IMG/VR virus record: IMGVR_UViG_2695420859_000010
DNA: 18,376 nt
From: a virus
Taxonomy: Duplodnaviria > Heunggongvirae > Uroviricota > Caudoviricetes
Reading direction: 5' to 3' (one strand)
Below the pieces are notes generated by a model. It did no database searches and was not told the DNA's origin. It worked only from the letters and a program-made list of their open reading frames with translations. Positions 637 to 5,293 of the stretch are shown piece after piece. A program made the translations under genes and the position numbers. Within the stretch, counting starts at the first letter, position 1. Each line of letters begins with the position of its first letter.

Positions 637-678
637 AAAAACCCCGTTTGTTGGCACCAAGCGGGGTTTTGTGTTTCT
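637..678 (+). terminator. Rho-independent terminator-like hairpin downstream of the endolysin gene
   Basis: AAAACCCCGTTTG ... CAAGCGGGGTTTT inverted repeat (about 12 bp, one G-U) followed by a T-rich run; the A-tract upstream makes it potentially bidirectional. Confidence 0.5.
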
Positions 679-3008: not shown

Positions 3009-3572
3009 GTGCTGACAACGCAAAAACGAAAATTTGCGCTGGCGCTCATGTCCGGGAAAAACAAAACAGCGTCAGCCATTGCCGCCGGTTATTCGGCGAA
3101 GACCGCCAGGGTTAAAGGCTCGCAGCTGGCAAAAGATCCGGAGGTGCTCGCGTTTATAGCCCGTAAACAGTGCGAAACGGTGGAGATGGATGAGGTTCCT
3201 GTTTACCGGCAGAAAAAATCAGAGCAGGAGGATAAACCCCGTCGCCGTGAGGTGGCTGCAATACCACAGCCGGACGAAAACAATCCGGAGATGCCTCCGC
3301 CCGCGGTGATATCTCATGGTATTGAATATATGGAGGATGGTCTTCCCGATCCGGTGAAAGCTATGGGGCAGATCCTGGTGGAAAACCTGATAATTGACCC
3401 GAAACTGGCACTGGATGCGGCCTGGCGACTGGCGCAGTTCACACACCATAAAAAAGGCGATGCCGGTAAAAAATCGGCAAAAGGTGATGCCGCGAAAAAA
3501 GCGGCTAACCGTTTTGCGGTGCCACCACCTCCCCGACTGGTGGTGAATAACCAGAATGAGGAAAGCGGATGA
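3009..3572 (+). CDS. Terminase small subunit (P27-family-like)
   Basis: 187-aa ORF, GTG start after GGGAGGAGG. N-terminal HTH-like region (KRKFALALMSGKNKTASAIAAGYSAKTARVKGSQLAKDPEV) typical of phage small terminases. Stop overlaps the TerL start (ATGA). Confidence 0.8.
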   Translation: MLTTQKRKFALALMSGKNKTASAIAAGYSAKTARVKGSQLAKDPEVLAFIARKQCETVEMDEVPVYRQKKSEQEDKPRRREVAAIPQPDENNPEMPPPAVISHGIEYMEDGLPDPVKAMGQILVENLIIDPKLALDAAWRLAQFTHHKKGDAGKKSAKGDAAKKAANRFAVPPPPRLVVNNQNEESG

Positions 3573-5230
3573 TACCTGTATGGAGCACGGCATGTCCGGA
3601 CTGGGCAGAGCGCCTGAAAAAGGGACTGTCGATTATTCCGGCTCCGATTTATCCGGACCAGGCTGCACATGCCCTGGCGATTTTTAAACAACTGCGAATT
3701 GTGGATGCACCGGGTAGCCCGACATTCGGGGAGTCCTGTGCACCGTGGGTGTTTGACCTGGTGGCGGCCCTGTTTGGCTCCTACGATGCGCAGACCGGTG
3801 TTCGCCATATCAAGGAAGTGTTTATCCTTATCCCCAAGAAAAACAGTAAGTCCACGCTGGCCGCGGGGATCATGATGACGGCGCTGTTACTGAACTGGCG
3901 GCAGGCGGCGGGCTACACCATTCTGGCCCCGACCGTGGAGGTGGCGGCTAACGCCTTCAACCCTGCCCGGGATATGGTACGACGGGACGATGATCTGGAT
4001 GACCTCTGTCAGGTGCAGACACATATCCGGACCATCACCCATCGGGTGACGGACACCACCCTGAAGGTGGTGGCAGCCGATCCGAATACGGTGTCCGGTA
4101 TCAAGTCCGTGGGGACACTGATTGATGAACTGTGGCTGTTTGGCAAGCAGTACAAAGCGGAAGACATGCTACGTGAAGCCATCGGCGGGCTTGCCTCCCG
4201 TCCGGAAGGATTTGTGGTGTACACAACCACCCAGTCGAATGAACCGCCTGCCGGGGTGTTCAGACAGAAACTGCAGTATGCCCGGGATGTCCGTGACGGC
4301 AAAATTCATGATCCGCACTTTCTGCCGGTGATTTTTGAGCATCCTCCTGAAATGGTGGAAAGCGGGGCTCACCTGCTGATGGAAAACCTCGCCATGGTCA
4401 ATCCGAATCTCGGTTATTCGGTGGATGAGGCTTTTCTGTACCGGGAGTACCGTAAAGCCCGGGAGGCTGGTGAGGAAGCATTTCGTGGCTTCATGTCAAA
4501 ACACGCCAATGTGGAAATCGGTCTTGCCCTGCGTTCTGACCGCTGGGCGGGCGCGGATTTCTGGGAGCAGCAGGGCAGGCGCGTCAGCCTGGACGATATC
4601 CTGCAGCGCGCTGATGTGGTGACGGTGGGGATTGACGGCGGGGGCCTGGATGATCTGCTGGGAATGTACGTGACTGGCCGTGACAGGGAAACCCGCGAAT
4701 GGCTGGGCTGGGGCCATGCCTGGGTGCATGAAACCGCGGTGGTCAGACGGAAGAGTGAGGCATCCCGGTTTCAGGATTTTGTGGCCTGTGGAGACATGAC
4801 GATTGTCCGTCGGGTCGGGGATGACACGGCGGAAGTGGCGGAGTATGTGCGTCGTATTCATGAGGCTGAGTTACTGGATCATATCGGTATTGACCCGTCA
4901 GGTGTGGGGCAGATTCTGGATTCACTGGCGGAAGCCGGGATCCCCGATGAGAGTGTGGTGGGGATAAGCCAGGGCTGGAAGCTGGGCGGGGCCATCAAAA
5001 CCACCGAGCGCAAACTGGCTGAGGGAGTGCTGGTGCATGGTGGTCAGCCACTGATGGCCTGGTGCGTTGGCAATGCCCGGGTGGAGCCTAAAGGTAACGC
5101 CATTCTTATCACCAAACAGGCCAGTGGACGGGGAAAAATTGACCCGCTGATGGCGCTGTTCAATGCGGTCTCCCTGATGTCCCTTAACCCGGAACCGAAA
5201 AAGAAAGAATATGTGGTTTTTTTCATATAA
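3569..5230 (+). CDS. Terminase large subunit
   Basis: 553-aa ORF with a Walker-A-like ATPase segment (ILIPKKNSKSTLAAG) and a C-terminal nuclease-like region; translationally coupled to TerS. Confidence 0.9.
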   Translation: MIPVWSTACPDWAERLKKGLSIIPAPIYPDQAAHALAIFKQLRIVDAPGSPTFGESCAPWVFDLVAALFGSYDAQTGVRHIKEVFILIPKKNSKSTLAAGIMMTALLLNWRQAAGYTILAPTVEVAANAFNPARDMVRRDDDLDDLCQVQTHIRTITHRVTDTTLKVVAADPNTVSGIKSVGTLIDELWLFGKQYKAEDMLREAIGGLASRPEGFVVYTTTQSNEPPAGVFRQKLQYARDVRDGKIHDPHFLPVIFEHPPEMVESGAHLLMENLAMVNPNLGYSVDEAFLYREYRKAREAGEEAFRGFMSKHANVEIGLALRSDRWAGADFWEQQGRRVSLDDILQRADVVTVGIDGGGLDDLLGMYVTGRDRETREWLGWGHAWVHETAVVRRKSEASRFQDFVACGDMTIVRRVGDDTAEVAEYVRRIHEAELLDHIGIDPSGVGQILDSLAEAGIPDESVVGISQGWKLGGAIKTTERKLAEGVLVHGGQPLMAWCVGNARVEPKGNAILITKQASGRGKIDPLMALFNAVSLMSLNPEPKKKEYVVFFI

Positions 5231-5254
5231 CCCTGTTCACACTGTAACCATCAC

Positions 5255-5280
5255 GAACCGCTCCGGCGGTTTTTTTATTT
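5255..5280 (+). terminator. Terminator-like hairpin plus T-tract immediately upstream of the capsid gene RBS
   Basis: GAACCGC-TCCG-GCGGTT stem-loop followed by TTTTTTTATTTT, then CAGGAGGC and the GTG start at 5294. Confidence 0.4.
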
Positions 5281-5293
5281 TCAGGAGGCTGAT

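Follow-up and report, generated by a model that had tools for sequence, protein, structure and literature searches.

The window, by which the whole stretch of 18,376 nt is meant, represents the late region of a Stx-converting lambdoid phage with a long tail. With a 601-base query across the terL-capsid junction (positions 5000-5600), 98-99.8% identity was found to JLK-2012, 2851, 1717, and YYZ-2008 and equally to many Stx1a/Stx2c phages, and the annotated region of phage 2851 showed a gene order identical to that of the window. On the plus strand, TerS (3009-3572) and TerL (3569-5230) are followed by a prohead-protease/major-capsid fusion of 645 aa with a GTG start (5294-7231; Pfam Peptidase_S78 and Phage_capsid), a small ORF (7276-7497), the 454-aa portal protein (7443-8807), a 353-aa ORF (8804-9865), four head-tail joining genes (9862-11333), the major tail (tube) protein with a C-terminal Ig domain (11400-12116; 68% identity to the HK97 major tail subunit), the G/GT chaperones (up to 12810), and the tape-measure protein (12858-16100; Pfam Phage_HK97_TLTM match). 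The Pfam and Ig domains agree with the first-pass annotation, in which the genes starting at 5294 and 11400 had been taken as the capsid and major tail genes.

In the portal region (7443-9865), the 454-aa and 353-aa ORFs overlap by ATGA at 8804-8807. The same DNA in phage 2851 and in the Sakai prophage Sp12 is a single 859-aa 'portal' ORF, residues 455-859 of which are matched by the 353-aa ORF with 77% identity. The stretch of the second ORF is approximately 160 nt shorter in the window, and an internal repeat lies there in the alignment; possible explanations are a natural split, a frameshift variant, and a sequencing difference. Upstream of the head genes, the strongest hairpin of the window (638-670, plus strand; 13-pair stem AAAACCCCGTTTG...CAAGCGGGGTTTT) lies within a gap of approximately 480 nt 3' of the endolysin gene, and a broken T-run (GTGTTTCT) comes after it; the hairpin is possibly a terminator or the end of a small RNA of the lysis region. 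The non-coding DNA 5' of TerS (2810-2940) contains several copies of a ATGTTAAC(T/C)(G/A)G-like motif in both orientations, which are candidate terminase-binding or cos-region repeats, and a homopolymer of G9 (2727-2735) is located just 5' of these copies.

Most gene junctions in the window are overlaps of 4 nt, and the others are overlaps or gaps of no more than approximately 14 nt, apart from the gap after the capsid gene and three gaps of 63, 66, and 47 nt (5231-5293, 11334-11399, and 12811-12857, respectively). Each of these three is occupied by a unit consisting of a hairpin and a T-run, and they are the sole gaps of at least 45 nt 5' of genes that require an initiation site of their own. 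Translational coupling is absent at the unit sites, which follow TerL, the tail-completion gene, and the rarely translated GT frameshift product.

Unit 1, 5' of the protease-capsid gene, begins 24 nt past the TerL stop codon with the hairpin GAACCGC-TCCG-GCGGTTT (5255-5272, plus strand; 7 pairs, -10.9 kcal/mol, z = -4.1), which is adjoined by a run of T7 A T4 (5270-5281); the Shine-Dalgarno (SD) site AGGAGG (5283-5288; -10.3 kcal/mol against the anti-SD) is 5 nt 5' of the GTG start. Unit 2, 5' of the tail-tube gene, is composed of the hairpin CCCGC-CGCGT-GCGGG (11363-11377, plus strand; 5 pairs, -8.5 kcal/mol, z = -1.4), a run of T6 A TT A T (11378-11388), and the SD site AGGAGG (11390-11395; -10.3 kcal/mol), 4 nt 5' of the ATG. 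Unit 3, 5' of the tape-measure gene, was found by a scan for a hairpin, T-run, SD site, and start codon in succession, and consists of the hairpin AACCGC-TGAG-GCGGTT (12819-12834, plus strand; 6 pairs, -10.8 kcal/mol, z = -2.9), a T7 run (12833-12839), a linker, and a GGAG SD site (12846-12849) before the ATG at 12858. In all three, the loop is 4-5 nt long, a run of 6-7 T abuts the stem and ends 1-6 nt short of the SD site, and the structure is on the strand of the operon.

Intrinsic terminators are defined by a GC-rich hairpin with a U-tract of 7-8 nt behind it (PMC6606751). All three units showed the features of this class, namely a GC-rich stem-loop within the usual range (approximately 5-14 pairs, loop of 3-8 nt), a U-tract directly 3' of the stem (T7, T6, and T7 for a usual length of approximately 7-8 nt), co-orientation with the operon, and a non-coding location. 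A terminator scan flagged the hairpins of units 1 and 2, and a generic terminator scan of the whole window revealed no enrichment (16 found versus 15.5 expected); the signal of the units is one of placement and conservation, not of count.

Two further hairpins were found near gene ends. A strong GC hairpin without a T-run lies 3' of the capsid gene (7246-7267, plus strand; CGGGAGGCG/CGCCTCCCG, approximately -19 kcal/mol). A weak extra hairpin (11320-11336, plus strand; -6.3 kcal/mol) covers the tail-completion stop codon, with a pyrimidine/T-rich tract 3' of the stem; the hairpin was present in close E. coli relatives but not in loci L122-L124. Around the capsid start, an ATG-TGA start-stop pair (5292-5297, ctgATGTGAct) overlaps the GTG, and the MTLKR N-terminus of the fusion protein is encoded from GTG in the E. 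coli lineage and from ATG in all other genera sampled. At the tail-tube start (11391-11411), the 3' part of the SD site and the spacer are predicted to pair with codons 2-4 (GGCAGA/UCUGCU), which would place the AUG in a 3-nt loop; such pairing could damp rather than enhance initiation.

The first-pass annotation had described a near-identical element before the capsid and major tail genes, each copy preceded by a GC stem-loop. In the capsid copy, GGCGGTTTTTTTATTTTCAGGAGGCTGA occupies 5265-5292 and the GTG comes next, at 5294, and in the tail copy, GCGGGTTTTTTATTATCAGGAGGCAGA occupies 11373-11399 and is followed by the ATG at 11400. An ungapped comparison of 5266-5292 with 11373-11399 revealed 24 identical bases out of 27, and the positions agreed with the earlier ones except for a single base (11373 instead of 11374). 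The similarity extends beyond the SD site, so that the ground on which the element was to be dismissed, a likeness of the SD site alone, does not apply. The GC stem-loops at 5255-5272 and 11363-11377 were likewise found in place, each directly abutting its T-run, and the element does join a terminator-like hairpin and U-tract with an SD site within a late operon that is antiterminated in this phage group. A degenerate 27-mer with three mismatches allowed matched the window at these two positions only, and 200 dinucleotide-preserving shuffles gave no match.

To what extent the two copies resemble each other more than any capsid and tail unit do was measured by comparing every capsid unit with every tail unit from the related loci described below, using the best ungapped 27-mer (272 pairs). 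Pairs from different genomes shared 18.4 of 27 bases on average (sd 1.8) and 23 of 27 at best. The pair of the window, with 24 of 27, was the highest of the 272 and one base above the best cross-genome pair. In 11 further genomes, the capsid unit and the tail unit of one genome had only 16-21 of 27 bases in common, which is not above the between-genome values and does not sustain the idea of a duplicated cassette. The bases common to both copies are the GCGG(G) 3' arm, the T-run, a T-rich linker, and a consensus SD site. Because capsid and tail units that come from unrelated genomes have a mean of 18.4 bases in common, with a maximum of 23, most of the similarity between the pre-capsid and pre-tail copies can be ascribed to shared architecture; judged from these comparisons, the resemblance appears to be mostly a matter of common design, not of module duplication. 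A dispersed repeat or mobile cassette was considered and rejected, in that the element occurred in the same two gene contexts only and its within-genome identity exceeded the best cross-genome pair by one base. In viral contigs, an exact-pattern scan for TTTTTTATTWTCAGGAGGCWGA returned only the capsid and tail contexts of this phage family and yielded no independent contexts, because all the matches came from these same two.

The proposal that the cassette is reserved for the two virion proteins of highest abundance did not hold, as unit 3 precedes the low-copy tape-measure gene. Annotated equivalents in HK97 precede the protease, tape-measure, I, and J genes, and the occurrence of units before the tape-measure gene and before HK97 I and J weakens the tie to the abundant proteins. 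Neither does a strong SD site mark these proteins: sites of AGGAGG strength are also found at TerS, the head-completion gene, and others, and SD sites equal to or stronger than -10.3 kcal/mol occur at TerS, the 353-aa ORF, the head-completion gene, and the gp10-like gene, with no hairpin at TerS, the head-completion gene, and others.

Conservation of the units was analyzed in related loci that were chosen solely by protein homology. A tblastn search of a phage collection with the capsid fusion protein gave no match between 95% and 39% identity, and therefore distant capsid loci were taken from genome contigs (28 loci fetched, 48-80% amino-acid identity). Phage records were fetched for the tail-tube protein. 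A Burkholderia relative of the capsid fusion in the phage collection has overlapping genes and no gap. The 21 capsid loci scanned comprised 17 Enterobacterales species, Arsenophonus, Phlomobacter, the betaproteobacterium Diaphorobacter, and the window itself. In a strict scan, a hairpin with a T-run was detected 5' of the capsid fusion in 19 of these 21, from Enterobacter to Proteus and Phlomobacter (57-78% amino-acid identity), with the same layout of a CCCGC/GCGGG-type stem, a free loop, T6-T8, an SD site, and a start codon. The loci of Arsenophonus and Diaphorobacter (L151 and L152) were missed by the strict scan, and a weaker hairpin was seen there by eye. In the alphaproteobacterial relatives of the capsid gene, the hairpin was absent, and it is therefore dispensable for the function of the head module.

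The tail-tube unit was present with its hairpin and T-run in all 17 loci. In eight of these (L130, L132, L133, L137, L139, L141, L143, and similar), the unit precedes a tube gene of 160-166 aa that gave no tblastn match to the protein of the window; the tube gene of L130, as one representative, belongs to Phage_TTP_11 (E = 1e-63). The pre-tape-measure unit was found in all five loci, including HK97 and L122, L123, and L124, and in the Klebsiella phage locus L123 it has a compensated CCTGC/GCAGG stem. Altogether, the full layout (GC stem, variable loop, 6-8 T, SD site, and start codon) was observed in 40 of the 43 related loci scanned, and 2.9% of control 65-nt windows from the related loci were terminator-like. 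The distance from the last G:C pair to the start codon was 18-25 nt in nearly all 40 units scored and 20-25 nt in most, with 16 nt in the Proteus locus L142; given this spacing, the U-run is positioned at about -10 to -22.

The stems were tabulated anchored at the loop, as a MAFFT alignment of the units had put them out of register. The 29 distinct hairpins, whose pairing itself is true by construction because they were selected by a hairpin finder, have 22 loop sequences between them. Counted from the loop, pairs two and three show flips from G-C to C-G, with stems such as CCGCC/GGCGG, CCGGC/GCCGG, and CCTGC/GCAGG. Among the E. coli copies, the stem is kept, the loop is TCCG, TGCG, or TGTG, and one A-U pair has changed to G-U. 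The maintenance of the structure in evolution, with the stem kept or compensated and the loop variable, is a further feature of intrinsic terminators, and the pattern is that of a selected hairpin and U-run. The earlier suggestion that the element is under selection is supported by this conservation across genera.

In the Enterobacterales prophages of loci L127-L143, tail-tube genes of at least three types accompany one and the same protease-capsid head module; they encode Ig-bearing proteins of 234-238 aa, HK97-like proteins of 147-157 aa, and proteins of 160-166 aa (L130, the Phage_TTP_11 representative). The change of module falls near the gap 5' of the tail-tube gene, and in L128 the tail-completion gene is separated from the tube gene by approximately 840 nt of additional DNA.

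Features of this kind have already been annotated in HK97. Its GenBank record (NC_002167) marks late-operon sites as 'terminator, putative', which are predictions as far as the record shows: 3309-3335 before the gp4 protease gene, 5192-5213 after the capsid gene, 6692-6719 before the major tail subunit gene, 7443-7462 after that gene, 8398-8422 before the tape-measure gene, 13799-13824 before I, and 15107-15129 before J. As in the window, a GC stem with a loop of 4-6 nt is followed by a T-run, and the start codon comes 10-15 nt later. Units 2 and 3 lie 5' of the orthologous major tail and tape-measure genes, and they are considered positional equivalents of the HK97 features because the tail-tube proteins are 68% identical over their full length. 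Unit 1 is the counterpart of the pre-gp4 feature for the protease-capsid block, and the hairpin at 7246-7267 corresponds in position to HK97 5192-5213 and to the hairpin after lambda E. The two phages differ in several respects: HK97 has the order portal, protease, and capsid, whereas the window has TerL, the protease-capsid fusion, and portal, so that unit 1 follows TerL and its HK97 equivalent follows the portal gene; the stem sequences are unlike those of the window; the HK97 pre-tape-measure terminator follows the moron gene gp15, which the window does not have; and the HK97 units before I and J are combined with poor SD sites (atgggtgaaaatATG).

In lambda, a similar hairpin with a T-run (GGCCGC-CTGT-GCGGC and T7, 6100-6122) is located between D and E, just 5' of the capsid gene E, a second hairpin is found 3' of E, and the late operon is antiterminated by Q. 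However, the capsid gene and its neighbors are unrelated to those of the window, the tail-tube gene V, preceded by a gap of just 7 nt, has no unit, and E lacks a strong SD site. The D-E hairpin is unannotated in the lambda record, and our literature search returned nothing specific on the function of this hairpin or of internal late-operon terminators.

The units resemble the Rho-independent terminators of E. coli, including the lambdoid tR' downstream of pR', in having a hairpin and a U-tract and in the bypass by Q (PMC6606751, PMC7547250), but they differ from canonical ones in being located inside an operon, fused to the ribosome-binding site of the next gene, and at the short end of stem length (5-7 pairs). 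Tn916 and conjugative elements of Gram-positive bacteria are reported to use terminators to silence genes and a dedicated processive antiterminator to read through them (PMC11658703, PMC8191782); the antitermination machinery and the hosts differ, and the likeness is one of working logic only, not of membership.

The units are probably intrinsic terminators in a Q-antiterminated late operon, packed against the ribosome-binding sites of uncoupled genes. Late transcription from pR' in lambdoid and Stx phages requires the loading of Q and antitermination (PMC7547250), and the Q ring in the RNA exit channel blocks hairpin formation (PMC6606751). The Q gene is outside the window and is present 5' of the same gene set in the Sakai prophage Sp12 and in phage 716R1, and the phages near-identical to the window are Stx-converting lambdoids. 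We infer from the anatomy of the units and their setting that they terminate transcription, are read through with Q, and insulate the genes behind them. Unmodified RNA polymerase would enter from upstream in the lysogen, by read-through or from moron or spurious promoters; the GC hairpin would form, and the polymerase would pause on the U-run and be released, leaving the capsid, tail-tube, and tape-measure genes silent as a consequence. On Q-loaded polymerase coming from pR', the hairpin would be barred from the RNA exit channel and all units would for that reason be read through, after which the next gene would be translated from its own SD site. As the units are short-stemmed (5-7 pairs, -8.5 to -10.9 kcal/mol), termination is possibly partial, and a terminator ahead of the most needed genes is counter-intuitive unless read-through with Q is near complete.

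The tight and constant spacing between the unit and the SD site fits a translational role of the U-run just as well as it fits termination. Both functions might be combined across HK97-like late operons in a dual-purpose gate, a tentative possibility that we regard as unlikely. Such a gate would stop polymerase devoid of Q, and on the Q transcript the hairpin would form past the exit channel, fixed at approximately -22 from the start codon, and together with the U-run would set initiation or stability. It would serve genes for which translational coupling is not possible, by independent high-level initiation or by stability of the segment. If this were true, the fixed spacing would be a selected feature, not mere compaction.

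That the units serve as translation-initiation modules is doubtful. By this explanation, which may coexist with termination, the U-run is an enhancer or standby site for ribosomal protein S1 and the hairpin shields the ribosome-binding site from upstream coding RNA, giving strong uncoupled initiation where the output of a gene must differ from that of the gene upstream. AU- and U-rich leaders are established targets of S1, and the units have a U/AU-rich single-stranded tract just 5' of the SD site. They also sit exactly where translational coupling is absent, their distance from stem to start is tightly held (18-25 nt in nearly all of 40 units), and the weak GTG start of the capsid gene might need help. 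However, S1 binding by a U-run requires no adjacent GC hairpin, and some hairpin-less genes have SD sites as strong as, or stronger than, those of the capsid and tail-tube genes (-10.3 kcal/mol). A unit is also found before the low-copy tape-measure gene, and those of HK97 I and J accompany poor SD sites (atgggtgaaaatATG). Furthermore, the SD site and start of unit 2 are predicted to pair with the first codons, which is not what enhancement would call for.

A role in RNA processing or stability is improbable. Cleavage in the AU-rich linker, with the hairpin guarding the upstream 3' end or the downstream 5' end, would divide the 20-kb late transcript into segments of unequal half-lives. The AU-rich single-stranded linkers resemble RNase E sites, the capsid gene is bracketed by the hairpins at 5255-5272 and 7246-7267, the latter without a T-run, and lambda E is bracketed likewise. 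Nevertheless, the U-run abutting the stem, a hallmark of termination that stability does not need, is kept in nearly all units, and a 3' hairpin would stabilize the low-abundance TerL and tail-completion messages, not those of the abundant genes.

It is very unlikely that the units are recombination joints, in which microhomology at module boundaries would permit the exchange of heads and tails and the identity of the copies would be maintained by gene conversion. Relatives do combine the same head module with three types of tail tube, L128 and L129 cease to be similar just 5' of the tail-tube gene, and nucleotide similarity to HK97 resumes exactly at 11373 (the 3' arm of unit 2) and a second time at 12858; blocks of similarity at gene boundaries are also expected, however, from unequal divergence of neighboring genes. 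The top rank of the window's pair among the 272 capsid-tail pairs, which gene conversion would explain, amounts to an excess of one base (24 versus 23), and the within-genome pairs of the 11 other genomes (16-21 of 27) are no higher than those between genomes. The conserved hairpin geometry is left unexplained by recombination.

Similarity to a small RNA was detected at unit 3. The segment 12772-12839 (plus strand), which spans the end of the GT gene and the terminator of unit 3, matched isrK, an Hfq-binding small RNA in Rfam (RF01394), with 27.1 bits (E = 0.022 for the whole window). As in IsrK, two small hairpins come first and a CCGC/GCGG terminator with a U-run comes after them, but membership was rejected, the score being well below the gathering score of 50. 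IsrK originates from prophage Gifsy-1, and its gene sits near the late-regulator region, not in the tail genes. That the units are the 3' ends of Hfq-binding small RNAs released from upstream gene ends, the hairpin and poly-U being the Hfq module, is hardly plausible at all: the isrK match and the many Hfq-bound small RNAs of EHEC prophages (PMC4104026) speak for it, but that match is mostly a generic terminator stem far under the gathering score, and the surveyed part of the Hfq-peak data, from uninduced cells, has no orphan peak near the pre-capsid unit of Sp12 (approximately 2,231,087).

The sole entry for Sp12, which carries this head module, in that part of the peak data is EcOnc10 at 2,234,239, on the opposite strand. 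This multicopy small RNA, also named HnrS, lies at approximately 2,234,239-2,234,287 in the Sakai Sp12 locus (L156), about 3 kb 5' of the pre-capsid unit and near the terminase region. The stretch at the published HnrS/EcOnc10 coordinates had no match in the window, possibly because coordinates differ from one version of the genome record to another. EcOnc22 in Sp15 was discarded as a candidate, being antisense and located between the J and I homologues in a prophage with a different head module.

In summary, the units are real and under selection but ordinary, being internal terminator-type spacers known from HK97-like and lambda-like late operons, and there are three of them in the window, not two. 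Accordingly, late-operon gaps in Stx phages and related prophages can be annotated as internal terminator-type elements, and no new regulatory cassette needs to be assumed. What remains of particular interest is the fixed spacing from stem to start, which possibly derives from a second role in translation or RNA stability. Comprising approximately 40 units, which were drawn from over 20 genera or species and have this fixed spacing, the series constitutes a clean natural comparison that is suited to two questions, namely how Q-loaded polymerase behaves at serial terminators and whether the U-run doubles as a translational enhancer. In the case of Shiga-toxin phages, insulating units of this type could curb the leaky expression of virion genes in strains that contain many lambdoid prophages.
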